A DNA stretch of 52,202 bases, from the NCBI GenBank assembly GCA_028524385.1, contig GCA_028524385.1_3661.2. One strand, written 5' to 3'. Shown in pieces: positions 4,001 through 51,415 of this stretch. The first letter of the stretch is position 1, and every line of letters begins with the position of its first letter. A model generated the notes under the pieces. That model did no database searches and was not told the DNA's origin. It saw only the letters and a list, made by a program, of their open reading frames with translations. This DNA comes from a phage. Made by a program: the position numbers and the translations under genes.

Positions 4001-6691
4001 CCGTATATAGTCTTCTCGTCTGTCCATGCAAATATGAACGGAGAGAAGTATCCGTTCGACGTTCCGGTAGCCAATAGATACAGACGTGTCGTGATGATCA
4101 TTAAGTGCGACCTGATAGGTAAGCAAGTTCCTGCTGAAAACGGAACATCAACACACCCGTTTGAAATTGCTCTGCACTACCAATTTGCAGATTCGCCTTT
4201 TGCAGGGGATAAGAGAATATCTGATACAGATGCACAGCGTTGTAAGAAGGTATTGTTAGGTGCTGGATGGTGGTGGTATGAGTTTGACTTGACAGACAAA
4301 CTCACAGACAACACAAAAACTCTTACAGGTATTCGTCTGGACCTTGGTGAAAACATGCACAAAAGTGTCTGCGATGGCACCTATGGTGATCCTACAGTAC
4401 ACTTGAAATATGTTTCTCTTGAGCATCCGGAGGAAACTGTTATTGGCCCCAAACTGAGACTGTTTGGCAGCTGGATTGCTAAAGACAGAGTAGGAATGGG
4501 TAAAAAGGTAAGAGGATTCCTGATGGATGCGGGGACAGAAGACATGCTGGTTAATGCAGTGTGGCCTACTCTAGAGGGAACCGACTACAACAATGCTGCA
4601 AGATCTGTCAACTGGTTTAACATCCACAGAGCCATGTGGACTACCAACTGCTATTTGTGGAGAGAGCTTAACGATAATGCCTTCGGCTTCAGCAATGGCA
4701 GAAGGATGGCTATCATTTGCTGGACAACACTGCAACGTTGCTATGACCACAACTATGAAATAGGTGGTAGAGCGTGGAAAGACACCAGGGATAGAATTGT
4801 GTACAACTTTGCAGACGACAACGGTGGTGGAGCGTATAACTTCGGCACAAGCAGACTTATCCACTTAAACGGATCCTCGGCCTACAAGAAAGAAGGTTAC
4901 TCTGGATCCATGATTGAGTGGGGTCTGGTAAAAGATGCTCGCGTATTGATGGGCCAACAACTTGCTGCTGCAATAGGTCCTAACGCAGTGCAATCTGTTA
5001 AACCAGCGTGGTTCGATATTCCATTGTGGTCATCCGGCACACCAGGGACTGCTGCAATCAATCCTACCACGGGAGATCTGGAAATCTCTTGGGAAGACTT
5101 GAAGCAGGTTGGGGGCTGGGATAAGACAGGGTATCAGGTGCAGTGGTGGAAATCTGACGGATCGTTAGCAGCTGATGAGTTTGTTAAGGACAATTTCTAC
5201 ACCATGTCTTCTGCAAAAGCACAGCAATTGTTTGGTCAGGCCACTCCGTCAACGATCACCATGTCTATGTGTTGTAAAGACAACAGGACTGGAGCTCTGG
5301 GACCAAGGGTTGCTAAAGTTTTCTCAGGTATCAAATGGAATCTACCTGTTCAAAGTGTTTCATGGAAGCAAATAGGTGATAACAGGCTGCTGGTTACTCC
5401 TGCTTGCCAGTTCAACGCAACTCTTAACGTTGTTCCGGTTGTTGCAGCAAACTCAGCCAAAGCTTCTGACTTCTCTGTGTCTAACACTGCCATGGCAGAT
5501 GTGAGAAAGATTGACACACTGAATGCAAGAATCACCTGTAAAAACACTTATGGCACCTTCCAGGTTATCAACAACTTCACAGATGCCGATTCTAAGGTGG
5601 TGAGAACCGCAAGCCAGACCTTGCGTTTAGGGACTTTGGCTTATGCAGCATTGATCACTGAGCAGTCATCTACCCTTCAGGGTGGTGGCGTAGGCAAGTC
5701 TATTACAACACCTGTTTGGAAGCCTAACGAGTGGGTTGTGTTTGATTTGACTGTTGACTTCTCCAGTGATAATAACTGGACGTGGGTAAGGGATTGCTTG
5801 TCTCAGTTAATGGGTGGTCCAAGCTCTATCAGGGATAGCCACGACTCTACCGATCCTGGCGTGTTCCAAGTGGGTAAAACTCACCCAGAGACCGGGGCTA
5901 CATTGCCTGACAGGAAGTATGCTTTGGTTTGCATCTCCCACGGCAAGGCCGATGTCACATTCTCAGGGACACATACTTATAACGGAACCTACAACTTCTC
6001 AAGAAAATACAGCCTCAAGGCTGGGAATATTGTAGATGAGGTTGGGGTGTTGTATAACCCTGGCAATGGCATAGGTATTGTTGGCGGTAAACTGCAGATG
6101 CAGGAACCCTCTATCACCCCTTCCAACGTAACAGGGATCAGAAAGACTTGGGAAAGTAGTAATACTGGCATAGCAACCGTTGATGCTAACACAGGACTGG
6201 TAACATTTAAAGCGCCCGGTAATGTCAACATAACGTTTGTAGTTACGGATGATGCAGGCCGCAAGACGTCTTCAACATCTTTCACTGTCAAACAGATGAC
6301 ACCACAGTGGAGAATGTGGATAGGCAGAGCAACAAACGGGGCATACCCAAATCCGGCAGGGACTTCAGGAATGAAGACTTTCTCTGCAAGCAGACCGATG
6401 GAGTATGGCAGCGGTCCTAAAGTAGGGCAAATGGTGTACTTCGGCGCATATATTCCTGAAATTATAGGGCTTCCGAGAAATCAGATCCAGTTGCTGTTCG
6501 GATCTGGAGTTGACGAGCTTGCTACTTTCGGGTATAGCGATAACATCGAGGCTGCAAGAAGTTCCGGATGGGTAGGGTTCAGACTGCAGTTGGCAGTAGA
6601 AGGCAGGGTCATGGGGTTTGGCTCCATAGGTGCCATGCTTCCTGGTGATCAGCAGTATGATCTTGAAGCTTATGCAACTTTCTCTCGTTAA
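1055..6691 (+). CDS. large tail fiber / receptor-binding protein (1878 aa) with C-terminal Ig-like domain
   Basis: Longest ORF; SD ggag 7 nt upstream; size and composition of phage fibers; Ig-like (BIG2-type) segment ...VTGIRKTWESSNTGIATVDANTGLVTFKAPGNVNITFVVTDDAG... near C-terminus. Confidence 0.65.
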   Translation: MLPIPLLKLGRHFLDKRGGIKELAVLSYPIDNSDGTSTAVSYVNSLAILFDDGQLNITGYNKFGECRTGDRNPINYPSETAWNVDHVWRADRAFVIRTFDNQFFYIGCTAGLIGSTAAGGNDVCVREWTPLPEQIVTGLHLDTHPERLVEVMGGINNTVWVIAAPEADGMLHLYGSGNNTYGSLHVDKNQHATPVKIGESSESPETGPWKNPRINCEVHDNSVIFGGPNGFWIAGYDFLRNNSKNTPVYPAEHVTLDQFKGIPVGETWKGFMCGPNGAIIATERMHKPDDQQLVNVFYGQDVWGDDTWRSLNITYTHEVIMARGYGTSGIFFNNGTKQYRGFSRNLCNDIGAQSANNNPRANFIHYRALATAKFVEQTEPVSWTESVYFQGIHREGFLGTFCVVNGKLWWSGIPRGSFSGSNNLFGGRLNSQGFTEIPENWYKNVPVDSWSIEDIFDVNGVSSVSNIYIGDTVKMKLKPQPEGATFIIDKIELVNAAGTVVTDANYQFSTNWNHGGANEIVVTQHNRNINRRGLYSVKITYHDKHGAGRTHTTRNLNWNIIVPAYPSDGKWHTVGRKKQFHVNDTVYFGLNGSQPAPESDTAYMVRLHRQDAGSTTYDVTQEIYDQRRSIYDNLVKTQALWEFNPNGKGGKMLQVNEQNGTSLTVHEHADPWPDPGKPHPGARTLKVVSHNAGYFGIRWEATVKYVDGTTNNIGITLGGTSEDSSLKIAYTPRGISIDNMDIVRNGYGDVNIKVTLGEHLGGERIIMYAFDHDPRTNGTYANQAWSYLINAPEPNTKEFYYGMKRDVCKKTGTHDWIAICVKDERTAWDEPVNRWFIGIPTRSDKYVTEYIVCMGGTNLNLCWNEDANKYSDYDYMRDISCNQWFNQTTGYPPRQARVNPAIFTDTQVFLTKQANEVQTFKNKYDPNKWFYNCYGAFFWGPGELPNGGSCFEAATYGSDYIMGQVKKYKMIPGPETLGNAVDPYIVFSSVHANMNGEKYPFDVPVANRYRRVVMIIKCDLIGKQVPAENGTSTHPFEIALHYQFADSPFAGDKRISDTDAQRCKKVLLGAGWWWYEFDLTDKLTDNTKTLTGIRLDLGENMHKSVCDGTYGDPTVHLKYVSLEHPEETVIGPKLRLFGSWIAKDRVGMGKKVRGFLMDAGTEDMLVNAVWPTLEGTDYNNAARSVNWFNIHRAMWTTNCYLWRELNDNAFGFSNGRRMAIICWTTLQRCYDHNYEIGGRAWKDTRDRIVYNFADDNGGGAYNFGTSRLIHLNGSSAYKKEGYSGSMIEWGLVKDARVLMGQQLAAAIGPNAVQSVKPAWFDIPLWSSGTPGTAAINPTTGDLEISWEDLKQVGGWDKTGYQVQWWKSDGSLAADEFVKDNFYTMSSAKAQQLFGQATPSTITMSMCCKDNRTGALGPRVAKVFSGIKWNLPVQSVSWKQIGDNRLLVTPACQFNATLNVVPVVAANSAKASDFSVSNTAMADVRKIDTLNARITCKNTYGTFQVINNFTDADSKVVRTASQTLRLGTLAYAALITEQSSTLQGGGVGKSITTPVWKPNEWVVFDLTVDFSSDNNWTWVRDCLSQLMGGPSSIRDSHDSTDPGVFQVGKTHPETGATLPDRKYALVCISHGKADVTFSGTHTYNGTYNFSRKYSLKAGNIVDEVGVLYNPGNGIGIVGGKLQMQEPSITPSNVTGIRKTWESSNTGIATVDANTGLVTFKAPGNVNITFVVTDDAGRKTSSTSFTVKQMTPQWRMWIGRATNGAYPNPAGTSGMKTFSASRPMEYGSGPKVGQMVYFGAYIPEIIGLPRNQIQLLFGSGVDELATFGYSDNIEAARSSGWVGFRLQLAVEGRVMGFGSIGAMLPGDQQYDLEAYATFSR

Positions 6692-6703
6692 CGGGGGGTA
6701 AAT

Positions 6704-6733
6704 AAAAAGGGGCCAAACGGCCCCTTTCTTTTT
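6704..6733. terminator. bidirectional intrinsic terminator
   Basis: Hairpin ggggcc-aaac-ggcccc flanked by A5 upstream and T-rich run downstream; sits between convergent genes 1055..6691 (+) and 6738..6938 (-). Confidence 0.7.
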
Positions 6734-6737
6734 ATAA

Positions 6738-6938
6738 TTAATAATATTCCCAACACGACCCATCTTCAGACGGCTGGACGCGTTTACCTTTGTGGTCAAC
6801 GTAGATATAGCCGCAACCTTCGCAGATAACAGGTGCTGCATAACCTTCCTTCCACTGATCTTCTGTGATTAGTCCTTCCAGATCTCCGCAATCGTGACCA
6901 AACAACTCTTCAGAACAGTCTTTACAAAAATCAGCCAT
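6738..6938 (-). CDS. small zinc-ribbon-like protein
   Basis: 66-aa ORF with CxxC...CxxC pairs (CKDC, CEGC); stop/start packed against next gene. Confidence 0.4.
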   Translation of the reverse strand: MADFCKDCSEELFGHDCGDLEGLITEDQWKEGYAAPVICEGCGYIYVDHKGKRVQPSEDGSCWEYY

Positions 6939-6941
6939 TTA

Positions 6942-7349
6942 TCAGTCCTCGCATTTAATAAATTTTTCTACAGACCCGCCAAGAACAGCTTGTTGCTTGA
7001 GGGCGCTTTCTTCATCGTAGTGAATAGATTTATGTTCCGTGCCTCCAAACTTACCTGTGTGGAAGGTATGCACCCAAATCTCTTTGGGGAGTGAGTTACC
7101 CTCTTCCTTCACCAACTCCCACATTCCCCACAAATGATCCGTAATATCACGGATAAAATATCCCTCACCGAGGTTTGTATTAACACTGTAGGCAGATTTA
7201 TGATCCCCGCAAGTATAACGGACGGCAGTGTATTCCTTGCCTGCTGTAAAATGGGTATCCATGATTATAGCTGTTATAGAGCTGGGGTCTCGAAAGCCTA
7301 AGAATTTTAGCTTAACAATTTCGACTTTTATATTTGTAAGATTATCCAT
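6942..7349 (-). CDS. hypothetical protein
   Basis: 135-aa ORF; SD gaggag upstream of ATG at 7349; promoter immediately upstream. Confidence 0.45.
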   Translation of the reverse strand: MDNLTNIKVEIVKLKFLGFRDPSSITAIIMDTHFTAGKEYTAVRYTCGDHKSAYSVNTNLGEGYFIRDITDHLWGMWELVKEEGNSLPKEIWVHTFHTGKFGGTEHKSIHYDEESALKQQAVLGGSVEKFIKCED

Positions 7350-8920: not shown

Positions 8921-9487
8921 TTATTCAAACTGCAATAGTAAGTCCACCACCGCGCTAGGTCTGTCAACAAATTCCCCAGGTCCACATGCCCACAGAGGGT
9001 ATCCGTCCACATACCTCCAAATCCAACCTGCAGTGTGTAGCTCAAGCAGGGCAGTACCGTCCTTACTGTCAACCACTCTTTCCCACAGTGTTGGGCAGCG
9101 AAGCTTGAGAATCGGATCACCTCCCTTATACCCGTCCATGTAGATACCCATTGCAAAGTTCAGCATCATCTTTTTGTGCACTGATCTCTTACTGAGGGTG
9201 CTCATCACTTCCTCTTTGTGAATGTTTGTAAGCTTCTCTTTGGCTACCCGCAGATCGTTGCAACCATTGTTCAGCAGATCTTCCAGACACTTGATCCGGA
9301 GGTCGTGAATGTCTTTGTCGTGTACCGTTGGCACAGGGTCGTAGCGGTATAGCACTGTTGATACAAGGTTGCTCGGGTGTGGGTCTGACAGCAACCCATA
9401 ACCCCAATACTCTTCTGTATCTGAAAGGACAAGACACCCAATGTCTCTGTCAAGCTTTCCTGTGTTGTAAGCCACATTGACCGCCAT
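8921..9487 (-). CDS. hypothetical protein
   Basis: 188-aa ORF in leftward operon. Confidence 0.4.
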   Translation of the reverse strand: MAVNVAYNTGKLDRDIGCLVLSDTEEYWGYGLLSDPHPSNLVSTVLYRYDPVPTVHDKDIHDLRIKCLEDLLNNGCNDLRVAKEKLTNIHKEEVMSTLSKRSVHKKMMLNFAMGIYMDGYKGGDPILKLRCPTLWERVVDSKDGTALLELHTAGWIWRYVDGYPLWACGPGEFVDRPSAVVDLLLQFE

Positions 9488-39554: not shown

Positions 39555-39865
39555 TATTTTAAGTTATCAGGTTGCCAGAGATCAGGAGGATTTCTAAAAT
39601 GGATTTCCTCCTTTTGATATTTTACCTGCCATGATATTTTAAAATCCTTAGAAAATCAGAAAATGGATCGAAAACTAAAATGGATTTTTCAGAGTAGGCG
39701 CGACAAGCTGAATCACTCATCCTATCGTTTGCACCATATTCCAGACCACCATTACAGATTTCCCGCACATGCTTACATCTCGCTACTAGAACTTCCTCCA
39801 CTCACCCTTGACCTTTTATAGCAATAATCCAACCACTATCTTGAAGTTGCGGTGCAGCTTTCCAG

Positions 39866-39887
39866 GTACTCGATCTGTTTTTCGTTT
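39866..39887. repeat. 22-bp direct repeat, copy 1
   Basis: gtactcgatctgtttttcgttt repeated exactly at 39931..39952. Confidence 0.75.
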
Positions 39888-39930
39888 CAAATATTGAATT
39901 TTCTGAAAATTTTTCTCGATAAATTTCTCA

Positions 39931-39952
39931 GTACTCGATCTGTTTTTCGTTT
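39931..39952. repeat. 22-bp direct repeat, copy 2
   Basis: Exact copy of 39866..39887; surrounded by recurring aaaatggat and ttttctgRaaat words. Confidence 0.75.
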
Positions 39953-40188
39953 TCTGAATCGGATTTTCTGGAAATCGTTCCGGATCTCGACCTGAAATTT
40001 TTGGGGACGAAATCGATTTTTCGTTTTCAGAAATGGATTTTTAAAATTTGTATATGGAAATATTTTAGGAGGTATTATTTTATATAGAATTGTCACGGTA
40101 GGTAATTAGCATGCTAACTAAATTTATGAAATGCGAAAAGTTCTCATTTAGAACTTTGAATGATAATCATTCTCGTTTGCAGAATAAC

Positions 40189-41461: not shown

Positions 41462-41489
41462 TTGACACGCTGCAAAATTAAAGTAAACT
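41462..41489 (+). promoter_or_regulatory. sigma70-type promoter preceded by A10 tract
   Basis: A10 (41449-41458) then TTGACA-16 nt-TAAACT; 5'-proximal hairpin ggcgggaa-tgt-ttcccgcc at 41500-41518. Confidence 0.5.
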
Positions 41490-41537
41490 AGGCACAAAAG
41501 GCGGGAATGTTTCCCGCCAACACAAAGGAAAAAGATC

Positions 41538-41933
41538 ATGAATAAGAACGTACGCCGCATCATGAACGAACTGGCAAACGATGAAAAAATTATTGATATG
41601 CATTTGGTCAACATTTGCCGCCGTTGTGTAACATATAACAACCGCGCCGCAAAAGCGCGTGAGATGAACGCAAAAGGCACCTTAAAGCCCTTTCAGGTGG
41701 TTGTAAAATCTATAACTAATGCAGCAGGCCAGGCGCATGACCACAACAACGAGAGCACTAATATTGATCCGTCTTACGTAATGAAACGGATCCGGACTTG
41801 CAAGAATAAAGAGCAGGTGTATAACGTCATAGATTGGCTGGACTCCATGGGCGATGTGGTTTATAATAGGTTTTCTGCAGCTATCGAGATCCAGCTTGAC
41901 AGACTGGACGGGAAAGTACTGAAAACTTACTAA
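41538..41933 (+). CDS. hypothetical protein
   Basis: 131-aa ORF with SD aaaggaaaaag. Confidence 0.45.
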   Translation: MNKNVRRIMNELANDEKIIDMHLVNICRRCVTYNNRAAKAREMNAKGTLKPFQVVVKSITNAAGQAHDHNNESTNIDPSYVMKRIRTCKNKEQVYNVIDWLDSMGDVVYNRFSAAIEIQLDRLDGKVLKTY

Positions 41934-41980
41934 ATTTATTTTTAGATGGCCTTGACTCCAGGGCCATCAATAAAGTAAAC
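41934..41980. repeat. conserved 48-nt intergenic hairpin element, copy 1
   Basis: atttatttttaGATGGCCTTGactcCAGGGCCATCaataaagtaaac directly after stop codon; 10-bp stem, 4-nt loop, embedded TTGACT. Confidence 0.7.
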
Positions 41981-42013
41981 TAATCCTAGTTAAGCTAAAA
42001 AGGAGGCTTGAAG

Positions 42014-42133
42014 ATGAGCACTACACGCCAGCACACAAAGGTGACCATCATCGTTTGCATCATTGGGTACATCCTGGCGCAAATGTTGATGAGTAGCGCT
42101 AACAGTTTTGCAAAATTTTTCTTAAATTTTTAA
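42014..42133 (+). CDS. small hydrophobic peptide (39 aa, not in ORF track)
   Basis: ATG with strong SD aaaggagg; MSTTRQHTKVTIIVCIIGYILAQMLMSSANSFAKFFLNF has one predicted TM segment. Confidence 0.35.
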   Translation: MSTTRQHTKVTIIVCIIGYILAQMLMSSANSFAKFFLNF

Positions 42134-42161
42134 TTGACAAGCTGACTTAGATCGATATACT
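42134..42161 (+). promoter_or_regulatory. sigma70-type promoter
   Basis: TTGACA-16 nt-TATACT; 5'-proximal hairpin gggaa-aac-ttccc at 42174-42186. Confidence 0.55.
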
Positions 42162-42211
42162 AAGCACATCAACGGGAAAACTTCCCAGAACACACAAAAG
42201 GAGAAAACACC

Positions 42212-42553
42212 ATGACTACTATGACCGCCGCAGAAAAAGCCATGCAGATCGCCGCGCTGAAAAAACAGATCGCAGACCTTGAGAATAAGATCGATAACTT
42301 TGAAATCGACGAGGACAAGTACGACGAAAACTATGATGAATGGTTAGACGAGATCTACGGCGAAATTATGATCGGAAACATTTCTTTTCTTCCATCGCGT
42401 ATCCTCAAGGAGCTAGATCCTATCGCTTACCGCTGCGGATTTAGCGACTACATCGACAGCCTGGATATTGAGGACGATGAAGAATACCAGGAATTGCAGA
42501 CAGAGCTTGAGGAAGTGAAAGAAGAGCTTTCAGAACTGGAAGAAAACGAATAA
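42212..42553 (+). CDS. acidic hypothetical protein
   Basis: 113-aa ORF with SD aaaggag; very acidic C-terminal half. Confidence 0.45.
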   Translation: MTTMTAAEKAMQIAALKKQIADLENKIDNFEIDEDKYDENYDEWLDEIYGEIMIGNISFLPSRILKELDPIAYRCGFSDYIDSLDIEDDEEYQELQTELEEVKEELSELEENE

Positions 42554-42600
42554 ATTTATTTTTAGATGGCCTTGACTCCAGGGCCATCAATAAAGTAAAC
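42554..42600. repeat. conserved 48-nt intergenic hairpin element, copy 2
   Basis: Identical to copy 1, again starting right after a stop codon. Confidence 0.7.
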
Positions 42601-42639
42601 TTTACACTGTTAACACTGAACTAATGAGGAGTTAAAACC

Positions 42640-42885
42640 ATGGCAGCACTAATTACCAAATACTATGCGCCCACCAACACCAAAAGCGCCCGGATCATGG
42701 TAAAAGGCTTCGGACGTAAAAAGGTTTACACCTGGGATTATTCCCTAGACATGGAAGACAACTACACCAACGCGATGACCGATTTTATTAACGAGCTGAA
42801 TACGCGGATCTTAACAAATTATAAAATTACCGACATTGCTTATATAGGTGAAGGCGGGATCTGTTTTGTAGGCATTGTGAAATAG
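42640..42885 (+). CDS. hypothetical protein
   Basis: 81-aa ORF with SD gaggag. Confidence 0.45.
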   Translation: MAALITKYYAPTNTKSARIMVKGFGRKKVYTWDYSLDMEDNYTNAMTDFINELNTRILTNYKITDIAYIGEGGICFVGIVK

Positions 42886-42886
42886 T

Positions 42887-42936
42887 TATTTTTTCGGTGG
42901 TCCTGGCTGCAGGGCCATCTATAAAGATAATTTACT
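42887..42936. repeat. variant copy of intergenic hairpin element
   Basis: ttattttttcGGTGGTCCTGgctgCAGGGCCATCtataaag; 5' arm differs from canonical copies but still pairs with the identical 3' arm (G-U wobbles); -35-like TTGACT lost. Confidence 0.55.
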
Positions 42937-42960
42937 AACACCATGAAAGGAGAAAGTAAC

Positions 42961-43314
42961 ATGATCAGCGGGGCTAGTTTTATTATTGGCGCTATTGCTA
43001 CGGCTTTAATTGTAAACAAGATCCAGGATAAAAAGGAAAGAGGAAGTACCACCCTTGCAGAATATCCATTTTGGACATTTAACGATAACGAAGACTATAT
43101 TGTAAAGTATAAAAATAAAGAAGGTGACCAAGTAACACCTCGACCGATCCCAGCTTACAAGATGCAGGAAACACTATACCGCCTGGAGGCGGGAGGCGCA
43201 AAAATTGTAGACTTTTGGGGATACGATCACACAGATCAGGAAGCTATAAAGCGGCGTATCAGGGCTATTCAGGCCAATATTGAAGTTAGCAAGGGGGGAA
43301 TATATGAAGATTAA
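42961..43314 (+). CDS. membrane-anchored hypothetical protein
   Basis: ATG 42961 with SD aaaggag 8 nt upstream (track ORF starts at 42943 without SD); N-terminal TM segment ISGASFIIGAIATALIV. Confidence 0.45.
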   Translation: MISGASFIIGAIATALIVNKIQDKKERGSTTLAEYPFWTFNDNEDYIVKYKNKEGDQVTPRPIPAYKMQETLYRLEAGGAKIVDFWGYDHTDQEAIKRRIRAIQANIEVSKGGIYED

Positions 43315-43501
43315 TTTTGAGAAGATTGTAAAGCGGTCTCATGATTCCGAAGAGCTGCCGGAACGCCGCCAGCGTAACAATAAACTGAATAAGCCAAAAA
43401 GATTTGGGAAGATCTGGCGGAATCATTATGATCGTAAATTGCCGGGCCTCCTTTTGGAACGTGAACGGCAGGCGGAACGATACCGCCACAAAGGCAACTA
43501 A
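43304..43501 (+). CDS. small basic hypothetical protein
   Basis: ATG 43304 with SD aagggggg, overlapping upstream stop; Arg/Lys-rich. Confidence 0.35.
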   Translation: MKINFEKIVKRSHDSEELPERRQRNNKLNKPKRFGKIWRNHYDRKLPGLLLERERQAERYRHKGN

Positions 43502-43508
43502 CAACCAA

Positions 43509-43540
43509 CGCCCCGCCATCGTGCGGGGCTTTTTATTTCT
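43509..43540 (+). terminator. intrinsic terminator
   Basis: ccccgc-catcgt-gcgggg followed by ctttttatttct. Confidence 0.65.
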
Positions 43541-43659
43541 ATCCTACGAATAGCGCCCCTGGTTGGCCCCACAACGCCCTAAAGGCCCCCTACTCATGCA
43601 ATCCCCTTTCTTAACCTGAAAACATCGTCAAAGGCTGTTTTAAAGCGTTAAAAATGTTG

Positions 43660-43688
43660 TTGACATCTAAAAATGCTCTAGATATACT
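43660..43688 (+). promoter_or_regulatory. sigma70-type promoter
   Basis: TTGACA-17 nt-TATACT. Confidence 0.55.
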
Positions 43689-43724
43689 AATCACATCAAA
43701 GCGAGAAGTAAGGGGGTAAACGCC

Positions 43725-43985
43725 ATGCGTAAATTGAAAAATTTTGATAAAGTCGATGTTGTCCTAAATAATTTTTACTACTGCAATAATAAAGCCGTTT
43801 GGTGGCGTGATAGTTCCACCGATAAGGTTAAGGCGCGCTTTCTCCAGGGGCACTGGCAAGGCCGCCCAGTGATTAAAATCCTGGGGCAATTGGTAGCGTT
43901 TAAAAATTGCCGCCGTGTTGATGACGTTGAAGAGATTCTAAACATTTTACGCCACAATAATTTAAAAAATAGTGTTGACAAGTAA
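43725..43985 (+). CDS. hypothetical protein
   Basis: 86-aa ORF with SD aaggggg. Confidence 0.45.
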   Translation: MRKLKNFDKVDVVLNNFYYCNNKAVWWRDSSTDKVKARFLQGHWQGRPVIKILGQLVAFKNCRRVDDVEEILNILRHNNLKNSVDK

Positions 43986-44002
43986 GTCTCAATAAGTATA
44001 CT
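43975..44002 (+). promoter_or_regulatory. sigma70-type promoter
   Basis: TTGACA-16 nt-TATACT overlapping end of upstream gene; 5' hairpin cgggaa..ttcccg downstream. Confidence 0.5.
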
Positions 44003-44058
44003 TAAACACACAGACGGGAAACTTCCCGCCACTAACAAAGAAAATAGGAGAAAATATC

Positions 44059-44682
44059 ATGACCACCGTTAACATTACTACAGGTTACAATTTATCTTTC
44101 GACGTGCTGACCGACGAACAAAAAGAAAAAGCCGTTGAAATGGTCCGCGAAAGAGAAGAACACAGCGGGGATAACTTTTTTGCAGAAAGTGTAATTGAAT
44201 ACTATAAAGAATATGTTTTTCCAGAGTACGGGCTTGAAGATACAGATGTACATTGGTCCGGCTTTTGGTGCCAGGGTGACGGCGCGTCAATCAGTGCTGA
44301 AAACGTGGATTTAGAAAAATTCTTGCGTAAAGTCAAGTCTCTGACTAAATTCCGCTCAATTCGTCACTTGTTCGGCACAATGCACGATGGCGAGCTATCC
44401 GCAAGTGTTGAACGTGACACATACAGCCGATATAGTCACGAAAACACTGTAAACGGATACATCGATACTACATGGCTGGACCTGACCACCAAGCAAGAAA
44501 ACAAAGTGGAAGATCTGGAAGAGCTGATCACCGAGACTGTACGTGAACTATCTCGCAAGGTTTACGTAGACTTGGAAGCGGCCTATTTGGAGCAATTCAC
44601 ATCTGAAAACTTGATCGGCCTTATCGAGGCCAATGATTGGCGGTTTGATGTCGATGAATATGGTGAGATGACTTTTTCATAA
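44059..44682 (+). CDS. acidic hypothetical protein
   Basis: 207-aa ORF with SD aggag. Confidence 0.45.
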   Translation: MTTVNITTGYNLSFDVLTDEQKEKAVEMVREREEHSGDNFFAESVIEYYKEYVFPEYGLEDTDVHWSGFWCQGDGASISAENVDLEKFLRKVKSLTKFRSIRHLFGTMHDGELSASVERDTYSRYSHENTVNGYIDTTWLDLTTKQENKVEDLEELITETVRELSRKVYVDLEAAYLEQFTSENLIGLIEANDWRFDVDEYGEMTFS

Positions 44683-44690
44683 ATAAAGTG

Positions 44691-44718
44691 TTGCAATAAC
44701 CTAAAAACCTGCTATATT
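44691..44718 (+). promoter_or_regulatory. sigma70-type promoter
   Basis: TTGCAA-16 nt-TATATT; 5' hairpin ggggcaa-gacg-tttgcccc at 44728-44746. Confidence 0.45.
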
Positions 44719-44769
44719 AAAACTCAAGGGGCAAGACGTTTGCCCCACACAAAATAAAGAGGAAAAATC

Positions 44770-45150
44770 ATGAAAAACACTACCAAAGCTATTGACACCG
44801 TTATGTTTAACCTGGTTACCTTTCGCGAGGATATGAAAGATCTTCCACGTGAAACAGTGAGTGATCACATTGAAAACTATCGCAAACTAATCAAAGAGTT
44901 GCCTTTAAAACGTGACCAGTATGCGGCTAACGCTATGCTCAACGCCATGATCAAAAAGATGATCCAGTGTGATTTAACTCTGGCCTATGATTATGCAGGT
45001 GGTCGTTTTGCAGTATACAATCAGCCCGTGCCTGGTATGAGCACCACCGAAGAATTGCACGCGTTAAATCTAAAACAAGATGTATGGGATAACATGCCCC
45101 GCGTGGTGGTGTGGGCAGAAAGCGGAAAGATTTACGGCGATAATTTTTAA
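44770..45150 (+). CDS. hypothetical protein
   Basis: 126-aa ORF with SD agagga. Confidence 0.45.
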   Translation: MKNTTKAIDTVMFNLVTFREDMKDLPRETVSDHIENYRKLIKELPLKRDQYAANAMLNAMIKKMIQCDLTLAYDYAGGRFAVYNQPVPGMSTTEELHALNLKQDVWDNMPRVVVWAESGKIYGDNF

Positions 45151-45160
45151 TCAGGTAACA

Positions 45161-45186
45161 GGCGGCATATTTGCCGCCTTATTGTT
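45161..45186 (+). terminator. intrinsic terminator
   Basis: ggcggca-tatt-tgccgcc followed by ttattgtt. Confidence 0.6.
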
Positions 45187-45214
45187 AAACAGAACTGCAA
45201 AAGAGGTACATAGA

Positions 45215-45586
45215 ATGGAATTTATTATTTTGGCCGTATTAGTTGCCTTGTTTAACGCCTGGATCGCTGGCAAGATGGGTAGATCCGCCTTTTTATGGTT
45301 TATTATATCTATTTTCCTGGGGGTGGTTGCAACTATTGTACTTGTTATCCTTGCAATTGTTGACAAAGGCGATAATAGAAAGGGTAAAGTATTTTCCGAC
45401 CTGTATGACGCTCAAACTTTTGTTAACGCCTATTATAGTGATCTTCCGGTCTCCTTGCGCTGCAGCCTGGCGCAACAAGTTTTTGATGAAGCTAAAACCA
45501 GAGATCAAGCCCATGAGATATGTTTAACTGAGGCGGATCGCCTATTTGAGAGGAATAGAAAATATGTGGGCCAACCGTTTAAATAA
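45215..45586 (+). CDS. predicted membrane protein
   Basis: ATG 45215 with SD aagagg (track ORF 45080 start runs through the terminator); two hydrophobic segments (MEFIILAVLVALFNAWIAG..., FLWFIISIFLGVVATIVLVILAIV). Confidence 0.45.
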   Translation: MEFIILAVLVALFNAWIAGKMGRSAFLWFIISIFLGVVATIVLVILAIVDKGDNRKGKVFSDLYDAQTFVNAYYSDLPVSLRCSLAQQVFDEAKTRDQAHEICLTEADRLFERNRKYVGQPFK

Positions 45587-45809
45587 TGCCACGTTAATTA
45601 ATCCCTTTAGTGAAGATTTGAAGCCAGCCGCCTGGCGTGACGGATTCAATAACGAACGCTTTATTTTCAGGCCTGATCTTGAGGAATTTTATAACAATGG
45701 ATCGAACAACGACAGAGATAATTTTTCTTGTGATGTGCGTGGTGATGGTACTCCTGGGGGCCATTGTAAACCACGTCACTACTACCAGAAGGAAAGGGGG
45801 AGACGATGA
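45564..45809 (+). CDS. hypothetical protein
   Basis: ATG 45564 with SD gagagg (track start 45546 is TTG); overlaps upstream gene end. Confidence 0.35.
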   Translation: MWANRLNNATLINPFSEDLKPAAWRDGFNNERFIFRPDLEEFYNNGSNNDRDNFSCDVRGDGTPGGHCKPRHYYQKERGRR

Positions 45810-45925
45810 CAACCAAGGATAAGCCCAGCACCGATAAGGTGCGCCGGGTTATGGTATGGCTGGAGATCATCGCCCTTGAAATATTGTTAGGCGTAGGGAT
45901 GTACTTTATCGCTGTAAGTAACTAA
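45806..45925 (+). CDS. small hydrophobic peptide (39 aa, not in ORF track)
   Basis: ATG overlaps upstream stop (ATGA); SD aagggggag; MTTKDKPSTDKVRRVMVWLEIIALEILLGVGMYFIAVSN. Confidence 0.35.
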   Translation: MTTKDKPSTDKVRRVMVWLEIIALEILLGVGMYFIAVSN

Positions 45926-45930
45926 GAACG

Positions 45931-45958
45931 GCCCCCGATCATGGGGGCTTATCTTTTT
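45931..45958 (+). terminator. intrinsic terminator
   Basis: gccccc-gatcat-gggggc followed by ttatcttttt. Confidence 0.6.
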
Positions 45959-46068
45959 CAAAAAATTTTTCTTCCGGGGTGTTGCAATCTGGTCCGCAAT
46001 ATGGATAATAACAATCAACGGGGAAACATCCCCACCACACAAACAAAAGCCTGAAGAGGAGAAAGAAA

Positions 46069-46269
46069 ATGAGCAAGAATATTCGCGTTATCAATTTTAA
46101 AAAAGATGAAAAACTGGCTGTTCTGGTCGATGGTCAAGAAATCTTCAAGGGCGATTATGAAGATCATCAAACGGCGATTAGTATCACTCGCGTGATTGGT
46201 TACCATAATTTTTACCCCCAAGGCGCTGAGGCAGCGGTTAAACGAATCAAAGAGATTGTAGGCCTGTAA
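46069..46269 (+). CDS. hypothetical protein
   Basis: 66-aa ORF with SD gaggag, preceded by TATGGATAAT promoter-like box and 5' hairpin. Confidence 0.45.
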   Translation: MSKNIRVINFKKDEKLAVLVDGQEIFKGDYEDHQTAISITRVIGYHNFYPQGAEAAVKRIKEIVGL

Positions 46270-46317
46270 AATTTATTTTTAGATGGCCTTGACTCCAGGG
46301 CCATCAATAAAGTAAAT
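46270..46317. repeat. conserved 48-nt intergenic hairpin element, copy 3
   Basis: Identical core to copies at 41934 and 42554, again directly after a stop codon. Confidence 0.7.
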
Positions 46318-46362
46318 TTAAACCCTGTTAAAATACCACGCAGTTAACAAGGAGTGATAGAC

Positions 46363-47171: not shown

Positions 47172-47229
47172 ATAAACCTGGCGGGGCCGAAAAGGCCCCA
47201 ATTATGAAAATAAAGAGAGGTAAATCATC

Positions 47230-49213: not shown

Positions 49214-49227
49214 GATTTATAAACTAC

Positions 49228-49258
49228 AAAACAGGGCTTGCAATGGTCCTGTTTTTTG
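49228..49258 (+). terminator. intrinsic terminator
   Basis: acagggc-ttgcaatg-gtcctgt followed by tttttt. Confidence 0.65.
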
Positions 49259-49270
49259 TTATACTTGTTT

Positions 49271-49322
49271 CACGGCAGGCACCTGGCGACGGGGGGGGGG
49301 AGACAACCACCGGGCCTGCCTG
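49271..49322. repeat. GC-rich structured element E3 with G10 homopolymer
   Basis: cacggcaggcacctggcgac-G10-agacaaccaccgggcctgcctg; reverse complement matches E1/E2 cores; G10 at 49291-49300. Confidence 0.55.
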
Positions 49323-49345
49323 TCATATAAGAACTATAAAAACCG

Positions 49346-49374
49346 TTGACATCTGCCATGGGGTGGGGTAACAT
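49346..49374 (+). promoter_or_regulatory. sigma70-type promoter
   Basis: TTGACA-17 nt-TAACAT. Confidence 0.45.
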
Positions 49375-49428
49375 TTATCTTGAAGGGGCAAAAGTGCTCA
49401 CACAACAACCAGAAGAGAGGAAAACACC

Positions 49429-49701: not shown

Positions 49702-49761
49702 TAAGATAATGACACGGGCCGAAAGGCCCACTAATCAAGACCACAAAGAGAGGAAAACATT

Positions 49762-50025: not shown

Positions 50026-50088
50026 TACAGCAAGCCATACAACCAGGGGCGAACGCCCCTTGATCCTGCAAAAATAATGCTATCCTTA

Positions 50089-50117
50089 TTGACAAGGATC
50101 GGCAGTTTTGCTATATT
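50089..50117 (+). promoter_or_regulatory. sigma70-type promoter with palindrome around -35
   Basis: TTGACA-17 nt-TATATT; arms atcctt / aaggat flank the -35 hexamer. Confidence 0.5.
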
Positions 50118-51238: not shown

Positions 51239-51415
51239 AAGGCAACTATGCAAACGAATGGCATGGCGCGACGGAGTCGCGACATAATATAAAAGCAGTA
51301 ACCATCACCCCCGTGATAGTTTGTCTGCAATCTATTATTCAGATCATAGTTGCCTTGTATTTAGTTAATCATGACATAACAAGCAAGGCAACTATAGATC
51401 TTATAATAGTTGCCC
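51239..51415. repeat. iteron cluster: AAGGCAACTAT in alternating orientation (4 copies)
   Basis: Copies at 51239-51249 (+), 51346-51356 (-), 51385-51395 (+), 51406-51415 (-); last two form ggcaactat-N12-atagttgcc inverted pair. Confidence 0.6.
51248..51267. repeat. 20-bp direct repeat, copy 1
   Basis: atgcaaacgaatggcatggc, repeated exactly at 51509..51528. Confidence 0.7.

Follow-up and report, generated by a model that had tools for sequence, protein, structure and literature searches.

What does a hairpin that recurs directly behind the stop codons of several small phage genes do: does it act as RNA, as a promoter in the DNA, or as both? We addressed this question in a 52,202-nucleotide (nt) stretch of phage DNA (contig GCA_028524385.1_3661.2 of GenBank assembly GCA_028524385.1; the whole stretch is called the window here), which belongs to an rV5-like coliphage of the genus Vequintavirus and whose 41-47 kb region matches more than 100 such phages at 92-95% identity. 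This region is a series of small plus-strand open reading frames (ORFs), nearly all without known function, and the genes that flank the copies of the hairpin element are all ORFans encoding proteins of no known function. A preliminary description, made from the letters of the window, had held that the hairpin and not a promoter is the conserved unit. Our analysis favours, with a probability of roughly 0.55, a composite reading of the sequence: the element would be a boundary between early-gene cassettes that joins a promoter to an RNA hairpin, similar to the promoter-early stem-loop (PeSL) of T4-like phages, and would also serve as a recombination joint.

Copies, anatomy and distribution of the element

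The 24-nt hairpin GATGGCCTTGACTCCAGGGCCATC is found exactly three times on the plus strand (41945-41968, 42565-42588 and 46282-46305), with none expected from 100 shuffles. The identical stretch around it spans 48 nt (41932-41979, 42552-42599 and 46269-46316), and in each case its first bases belong to the stop codon of the preceding gene (gene ends 41933, 42553 and 46269). A fourth copy (42882-42932), located after the gene ending at 42885, shares 71% identity over 51 nt. These three identical copies and one variant are those of the preliminary description, and the 52-kb window holds no other: a covariance model of the element recovered only these four, at 79-81 bits for the three and 68 bits for the variant, while their minus-strand images scored 31-44 bits. 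A weak match of the model at 51345-51397 was considered as a further diverged copy and rejected as an unrelated inverted repeat. Each copy begins at the upstream stop codon or within one base of it, lies on the coding strand and ends 30-50 nt ahead of the next Shine-Dalgarno (SD) sequence and ATG.

The 10-bp stem, the 4-nt loop and the TTGACT word across the stem-loop junction of copies 1-3 are as first described. What had been missed is that the U-rich 5' and A-rich 3' flanks pair with each other, forming a lower stem of 8-10 A-U/G.U pairs, that TAAACT or TAAATT stands 18 nt downstream of TTGACT, and that the PeSL class offers a precedent. On the plus strand both copy types fold into this lower stem, a 2x3 internal loop (which could hold one more U-A pair), an upper stem of 10 bp rich in G+C, and a tetraloop, with about 21-22 stacked layers, -20 to -24 kcal/mol and z-scores of -4.5 to -6. 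The minus strand folds poorly because the G.U pairs turn into A.C mismatches.

In copy 1 (site 1; extended hairpin 41933-41981, 79.3 bits), the lower stem pairs 41933-41942 with 41972-41981, the internal loop comprises 41943-41944 and 41969-41971, and the upper stem pairs 41945-41954 with 41959-41968 around the loop 41955-41958; the -35-like TTGACT lies at 41952-41957 and the -10-like TAAACT at 41976-41981. Copy 2 (site 2; 42553-42601, 80.1 bits) has the same anatomy, with its upper stem at 42565-42588, TTGACT at 42572-42577 and TAAACT at 42596-42601. In copy 3 (site 3; 46270-46318, 81.1 bits) the upper stem occupies 46282-46305, TTGACT 46289-46294 and TAAATT 46313-46318, and the ninth lower-stem pair is A-U where many relatives have G-C at sites 1 and 2. 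The variant, copy 4 (site 4; 42884-42932, 68.3 bits), has a 10-bp lower stem, a -10-like GATAAT and an upper stem at 42896-42919 that reads GGTGGTCCTG gctg CAGGGCCATC and includes two G.U pairs. Its 3' arm is that of the other copies, and its three 5'-arm changes (A-U to G.U, C-G to U.G, U.G to C-G) all keep pairing on the plus strand, so the earlier observation that a changed 5' arm still pairs with an unchanged 3' arm while TTGACT is lost (here to CTGGCT) stands.

None of the copies looks like a canonical terminator, again in line with the preliminary description: a consensus terminator scan in both orientations lists no copy, and the U-tract that marks a rho-independent terminator (at least 5 U in 8, 0-2 nt after a G+C-rich hairpin) is absent, as the tail is AAUAAAGU after the upper stem and CUAAUC, CUUUAC, UUUAAA or UUUACU after the extended stem. 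An Rfam search of 40-48 kb gave chance-level matches only (rhtB at 23 bits against a threshold of 55, E = 2.3).

BLAST with a 51-mer returned 121 phage records, most with three matching places and all Vequintavirus except KKE7M; in about 120 related genomes there are 3-4 copies per genome, always at syntenic intergenic sites and in one orientation. There was no match in 5,426 Escherichia coli genomes, and an E. coli plasmid collection yielded a single record, the 137.5-kb 'plasmid' CP057073.1 with three copies. Another 17 records, labelled 'UNVERIFIED Campylobacter phage' (MG0656xx), share about 92% identity with this group of E. coli phages; they and the 'plasmid' are probably mislabelled rV5-like phages. 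In IMG/VR, a degenerate-pattern scan returned 55 loci, of which only two contigs, both Vequintavirus, are genuine and the remainder single chance palindromes, and a protein-anchored search returned two loci; the metagenome scan found the element in the same genus and in no other group. Annotators have disagreed about the element: the Murica record labels sites 3 and 4 as 45-nt terminators, the Gotham record calls it a promoter through PhagePromoter, and the EdH4 (its terminator annotation included) and rV5 records leave it unlabelled. The composite reading would explain the conflict between terminator (Murica), promoter (Gotham) and nothing (rV5).

Comparative evidence for a strand-specific RNA fold

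The preliminary description had proposed a search of related genomes with covariation analysis, and in these the element proved present and its pairing constrained. We collected 76 copies (51 distinct 56-57-mers) from the four syntenic sites of about 20 Vequintavirus genomes and some metagenome contigs, and scored how well the 49 distinct copies without gaps pair in the two-helix structure, which was itself derived from these sequences. Paired cells amounted to 98.1%, compared with 93.6% in shuffles (0 of 500 reached the observed value) and 34-56% after the 3' partners were slid by 1-3 columns, and the covariation score was 0.186 versus 0.108 in shuffles; as the sequences are closely related, these shuffle statistics overstate independence. 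Four lower-stem pairs carry two-sided changes (A-U/G.U/G-C; U-A/C-G; A-U/U-A; G-C/A-U). Apart from two breaks, both at the loop-closing pair, the upper stem varies on one side of a pair at a time and stays paired (A-U to G.U, C-G to U.G, U.G to C-G or U-A, G-C to G.U); no double compensatory change was found there among the sampled copies, because the metagenome scan yielded the same genus only and no more divergent homologues. The 3' arm CAGGGCCATC is almost invariant across all copies. Indels were seen in the loop or the internal loop (site 1 of relative L005, site 4 of L069 and of phage ime), and the fold of L005 site 1 is intact.

The two strands differ clearly. On the minus strand 86.5% of the cells pair, against the 98.1% on the plus strand, and the mean minimum free energy is -14.5 kcal/mol on the minus and -23.4 kcal/mol on the plus strand, which is the more stable one in 49 of 49 copies. 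Wobble-mediated changes together with strand asymmetry are what an RNA structure on the transcribed strand predicts, and not what an operator in duplex DNA predicts. Comparative analysis of the sequences thus shows the hairpin to be a conserved, strand-specific RNA unit on the transcribed strand, and it is the universally conserved part of the element.

Promoter, recombination and competing explanations

At sites 1-3, a promoter probably coincides with the hairpin. These sites carry a T-tract followed by TTGACN-18-TAAAYT, a 9/12 match to the sigma-70 consensus, and the 3' segment of the element, AAAGTAAAYT, is the -10 context of ordinary promoters in the window (41462-41489) and in phage muut. 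The promoter at 41462-41489, 470 nt upstream of the element, has the -10 context AAAGTAAACTA in common with it, and TAAACT within the context AAAGTAAACT recurs as the -10 in ordinary promoters at window position 41462, in muut and at 9197 of KKE7M (genome L008); phi92-like phages too have this -10 in their promoters. We also considered a promoter upstream of the hairpin, which would make the element a 5' untranslated region (5'-UTR) hairpin like its neighbours, and rejected it, since the hexamers available there are poor and the covariation of the lower stem includes its 5' strand, which must therefore be within the RNA.

The promoter is argued for most strongly by a recombinant found in nature, where the element has taken, in register, the place of a resident promoter's -10. 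KKE7M, a Justusliebigvirus and thus a member of another subfamily, carries window positions 42133-42599 at its positions 6582-7049 (467 bp, 95% identity). This cassette comprises the 113-aa ORFan, its own promoter, which forms the 5' end (42134-42161), and the hairpin element, copy 2 of which forms the 3' end. Aligned to its relative muut, which lacks the insert, KKE7M has its left junction in the spacer of the resident promoter, directly after TTGACAAGATAACTAAAATC, and its right junction in the -10, directly after AGTAAA. The TAAATT of the element thereby occupies the very position of TAAACT in muut, with the resident 5'-UTR hairpin 10 nt downstream, so that the unit transferred runs in register from the -10 of the promoter at 42134 to the spacer of element 2. 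The alignment points to a recent transfer of a one-gene expression cassette between Vequintavirus and KKE7M, across subfamilies.

Recombination between copies has left further traces. In ime, phiWec189, ECP32 and the IMG/VR contig 2051223002_000007, sites 1 and 2 are fused into one hybrid element whose upstream flank is that of site 1 and whose downstream flank is that of site 2, the junction lying inside the element; window positions 41982-42554, with their 39-aa and 113-aa ORFs, are absent. As these four genomes have differing site-4 haplotypes, their comparison suggests that the deletion has recurred or has spread by recombination. The loop variants ACTC, ACGC, ACTT and ACAC each turn up at all of sites 1-3, in differing genomes, and are often common to two sites within one genome, which is a signature of gene conversion, and chimeric site-4 copies are seen in relatives L071 and L087. 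Judged from these genome comparisons, the copies are shown to recombine, by homologous recombination and gene conversion, and in doing so to delete or exchange ORFan cassettes.

The composite reading would join these observations at three levels. As RNA, transcripts from an upstream promoter would traverse the element, which folds, from the ORFan stop codon onwards, into an interrupted hairpin of about 21-22 pairs. This hairpin might mark and insulate the upstream unit at its 3' end and might hinder exonucleases working 3'-to-5', dampen read-through, or both, and it is long enough to be an RNase III substrate. As DNA, the same bases at sites 1-3 would form the sigma-70-type early promoter of the downstream ORFan, a step based on the sequence and the one natural recombinant: a T-tract, TTGACN as the -35 where stem and loop meet, a spacer of 18 bp and, within the 3' strand of the lower helix, TAAAYT as the -10. 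Transcription from this promoter would begin past the hairpin, so that its transcripts would lack the fold, and site 4 would have retained the hairpin alone. At the level of the genome, the near-identical direct repeats recombine, removing or swapping the ORFan cassettes that they flank. At three of the four sites, the element follows the first cistron after a strong promoter, and this position combined with the missing U-tract makes it the most economical role to define and protect the upstream 3' end and to dampen read-through. Because of the hairpin length and the conserved internal loop, processing by RNase III is a serious sub-hypothesis.

The preliminary description was thus right about the hairpin, given the 98.1% pairing, the strand bias and the decay of the hexamers at site 4, and premature in dismissing the promoter, given the AAAGTAAAYT context and the in-register replacement of the -10 in KKE7M.

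Several observations weigh against the composite reading, in addition to the relatedness of the sampled sequences. The promoter match is modest (9/12) with a suboptimal 18-nt spacer, and the chance probability of such a 9/12 match in a 50-nt element is about 0.06 (shuffle rate); the invariant loop 'AC' of TTGAC is conserved no more than its site 4 equivalents and so is not creditable to a -35. At site 4, CTGGCT (family CTGGYN) replaces the -35 and the -10 drifts through GATAAT, GATAGT, GACAGT and GATAAC while the stem covaries, and L005 site 1 shows TTGATA with a spacer of 20 nt. In KKE7M, the junction reflects one event only, resting on 6-7 nt of microhomology. The missing U-tract after the upper stem means that efficient intrinsic termination is not expected. 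In Gotham (L003), site 1 (1440-1460) has a 5-nt deletion that removes GGGCC of the 3' arm and ruins both hairpin and spacing, from which it follows that this copy would be dispensable; the alternative to such decay is that the hairpin was wrongly assembled. Table S4 of the rV5 paper lists the element neither as promoter nor as terminator, the Certrevirus CB7 paper describes ordinary sigma-70-like promoters only, and a search for a Vequintavirus transcriptome found none, the promoter, attenuator and stabiliser activities all being inferred.

An unlikely alternative, which nevertheless has to be weighed, is that the element functions through its hairpin alone, as a signal for processing or stability between cistrons, and that it resembles a promoter by coincidence. 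It might be an RNase III site of the kind found between T7 early genes, where cistrons are cut apart and a 3' hairpin is left, or a barrier to exonucleases. Covariation and strand specificity fit this explanation, as do the folds kept at site 4 and at L005 site 1 despite the lost promoter geometry, the position of three of the four copies after the first gene downstream of a strong promoter, and the size of the helix: its roughly 21-22 layers and small conserved internal loop fall into the size class of E. coli RNase III substrates, and T7 R1.1 and R1.3 fold to a comparable size. The likeness to the T7 sites is one of size only, however, and an RNA signal accounts neither for the in-register swap of the promoter -10 in KKE7M nor for the -10 context that the element has in common with ordinary promoters; the sites also lie 30-50 nt before an SD sequence and start codon, where neighbouring intergenic regions hold promoters.

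We regard it as quite unlikely that promoter and hairpin are, beyond the composite reading, mechanistically coupled, with read-through RNA folding over the next promoter as a retroregulation or insulation signal for a nuclease. The 22-bp helix would then be a dedicated signal for RNase III or another nuclease, and each ORFan cassette would have its own 'start here, cut there' module that functions after transfer, as KKE7M might illustrate. If true, this would amount to a portable, self-insulating expression cassette common to phage subfamilies.

Little speaks for a non-canonical intrinsic terminator or attenuator as the whole function, in which the extended hairpin and a short UUU would partly stop read-through. 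The Murica annotation of sites 3 and 4, the UUU 0-2 nt after the extended stem at sites 2-4 and the finding that PeSL stem-loops without classic tails cut read-through in a reporter (PMC2839356) agree with this view, but only A-U pairs make up the helix base beside the tail, the run of U is just 3 long and is replaced by CUAAUC at site 1, no copy is called by the consensus scan and the EdH4 terminator annotation passes over these sites.

The preliminary description had also offered an operator for a dimeric regulator and a REP-like mobile element, both of which our results disfavour. A DNA operator, in which the inverted repeat over the -35 would bind a dimeric phage or host regulator that switches early promoters, is very improbable: the 10-bp inverted repeat does cover the -35 and spacer and its 3' arm is almost invariant, but the DNA dyad is imperfect (T:G at opposite positions), site 4 breaks three positions in one half-site only, the tolerated changes are one-sided, wobble-type and meaningful only for a folded single strand, the A-U lower helix covaries too, and no candidate regulator was identified among the flanking proteins. 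A REP-like selfish palindrome spreading by transposition can practically be set aside: the element is short, palindromic, present in several intergenic copies and found once in another phage subfamily, but it occurs in only 3-4 copies at the same syntenic sites in a single orientation, the KKE7M copy came inside the 467-bp gene cassette and not by itself, neither the E. coli genomes nor other phage groups contain a match, and no target duplications, transposase or other sign of transposition were seen.

Setting in the early region and known systems

The majority of the ORFs at 41-47 kb have a sigma-70-like promoter upstream, usually followed by a short G+C-rich 5'-UTR hairpin. The gene ending at element 1 is served by an ordinary promoter with an A-tract (TTGACA-16-TAAACT, 41462-41489, plus strand), with a 5'-UTR hairpin at 41500-41518, 10 nt past it. 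The plus-strand segment between elements 1 and 2 (41982-42554) contains a 39-aa ORF (42014-42133), the strong promoter TTGACA-16-TATACT (42134-42161) and the 113-aa ORFan that it serves (42212-42553). A promoter-like site (TTGCAA-16-GATAAT, 45982-46009, plus strand) lies upstream of the gene at 46069-46269, which ends at element 3. The 65-aa protein of 43304-43501 matches Pfam PF08200, Bacteriophage 1.1 protein (T7 gp1.1-like; E = 9.5e-11), and its homologue in the Murica record has the same T7 gp1.1-like annotation.

G+C-rich intergenic hairpins without U-tracts also lie at 41500-41518, 42172-42188, 44013-44030, 44728-44746, 46019-46035, 47183-47199 and 49716-49729, mostly about 10 nt past a sigma-70-like -10 and followed by an A/C-rich 'ACACAAAG' leader and an SD sequence. 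They look like 5'-UTR stabilising hairpins and would form a second, more numerous hairpin class of the early region; phi92-like phages (L008 and L076) share this design of -10, 5'-UTR hairpin, leader and SD sequence.

Two other places combine a -35 with a hairpin loop. In the strong promoter at 50089-50117 (TTGACA-17-TATATT with TG), the -35 falls within the loop of a 6-bp hairpin (50082-50099; ATCCTT/AAGGAT) nested in an outer GCAAAA/TTTTGC stem; its sequence is unrelated to the element, and in phage ime an A-to-G change still pairs as G.U on the plus strand. In KKE7M (5467-5561), a 12-bp hairpin, CTTGTGCTATTG...CGATAGCACAAG, encloses TTGACA, with CATAAT directly after it. BLAST matches to other phages end on either side of this intergenic region, the upstream gene being common to rV5-like phages and the downstream gene to other phi92-like phages, and these neighbours from different phage groups make it another module junction. 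Both cases suggest that the design with the -35 in a hairpin loop recurs in these phages.

Elsewhere in the window, three tandem diverged repeats of about 65-74 nt (AAATTTCTCAGTACTCGATCTGTTTTTCGTTTT...) occupy 39856-40041, where there are no convincing ORFs; the rV5 paper mentions a 'non-coding' box that we set beside them, and they could be an origin or another regulatory array. The 9-mer ATAGTTGCC is found at 51241-51249, 51346-51354, 51387-51395 and 51406-51414, twice direct and twice inverted, and this set includes a 12-bp inverted repeat about 25 nt apart, an iteron- or operator-like pattern. The 215-nt intergenic region 49214-49428 contains a run of ten G (49291-49300), a terminator-like hairpin and two promoter-like sites.

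Among known systems, the rho-independent terminator is the most superficial match: it shares with the element a G+C-rich hairpin right after the stop codon, and one GenBank record annotates the element accordingly, but the T-tract of the element is on the 5' side and no U-tract follows the G+C stem. Intercistronic stem-loops of the repetitive extragenic palindromic (REP) and bacterial interspersed mosaic element (BIME) type, such as that of malE-malF, are likewise stable hairpins between cistrons without a U-tract, and both would be expected to shield the upstream segment as 3' decay barriers, giving differential expression within an operon. In contrast to them, the element is phage-specific, not host-derived, low in copy number and endowed with promoter-like hexamers, and it shows neither the many dispersed, non-syntenic copies nor the association with the host or with a REP-associated tyrosine transposase (RAYT) that mark REP/BIME sequences, its sole copy outside the genus being cassette-borne.

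The RNase III sites of T7 (R0.3 to R1.3) are closer: these hairpins of about 20 bp with an internal loop lie between small early genes transcribed by the host RNA polymerase, and the element likewise lies between small early genes. The hairpin left at the 3' end after the RNase III cut stabilises the upstream mRNA in T7. With about 21-22 layers and a conserved 2x3 internal loop, the element would fit the coaxial helix of at least about 20 bp, often with an internal loop, of such sites, which is a resemblance; the comparison with our folds of R1.1 and R1.3 is also one of size, the T7 RefSeq record being without RNase III site annotation. Unlike the element, the T7 sites are neither placed in sigma-70 promoters nor near-identical repeats, and they have no sequence or Rfam relationship to it.

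The closest counterpart is the PeSL of the T4-like phages RB49/phi1, PST/T4 and nt-1/KVP40 (Arbiol et al. 2010, PMC2839356; Comeau et al. 2014, PMC4122927). PeSLs combine an AT-rich stop-codon region, a sigma-70 promoter and an overlapping stem-loop with G.T pairs, are repeated in ORFan-rich regions, mediate the excision and exchange of cassettes and include degraded half-copies; promoter and terminator/attenuator activity and mini-circle formation are among their features (PMC2839356, PMC4122927). At the sequence level, the element has all the defining features of this class. The layout is the same, from a stop codon in an AT-rich stretch through a sigma-70-like -35/-10 and an overlapping stem-loop to an SD sequence and start codon. 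Sites 1-3, though not site 4, have a -35/-10 pair at the PeSL-like spacing of about 17 nt with an AT-rich upstream region; a stable stem-loop coincides with the promoter (-20 to -24 kcal/mol, z below -4, covariation); all four copies are intergenic, between a stop codon and an SD sequence and start, in an ORFan-rich, plastic region; there are four conserved copies in the window, far fewer than the dozens of RB49; and indels and cassette exchange occur at the motif (the four site 1 x 2 deletions, the KKE7M cassette ends and the shared loop variants). Site 4, with its hairpin intact and its promoter decayed, resembles the 'degraded' PeSLs of Comeau et al. 2014 (PMC4122927).

The differences from PeSLs lie in the lineage, Vequintavirinae plus one Justusliebigvirus without sequence similarity to them, and in the architecture, as the stem of the element encloses the -35 and a second, A-U helix ties the upstream T-tract to the -10 region. 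RNA-level covariation is documented for the element, which is known here from its sequence. The composite reading would extend beyond T4-like phages, to rV5-like and phi92-like phages, the PeSL idea that cassettes of promoter plus hairpin regulate orphan early genes and act as crossover points, and it indicates where deletions can be expected in phages that are being developed for therapy and biocontrol. New relative to the original PeSL work are the covariation evidence for RNA selection on the transcribed strand and a natural recombinant in which a promoter-to-promoter unit appears to have moved between phage subfamilies.

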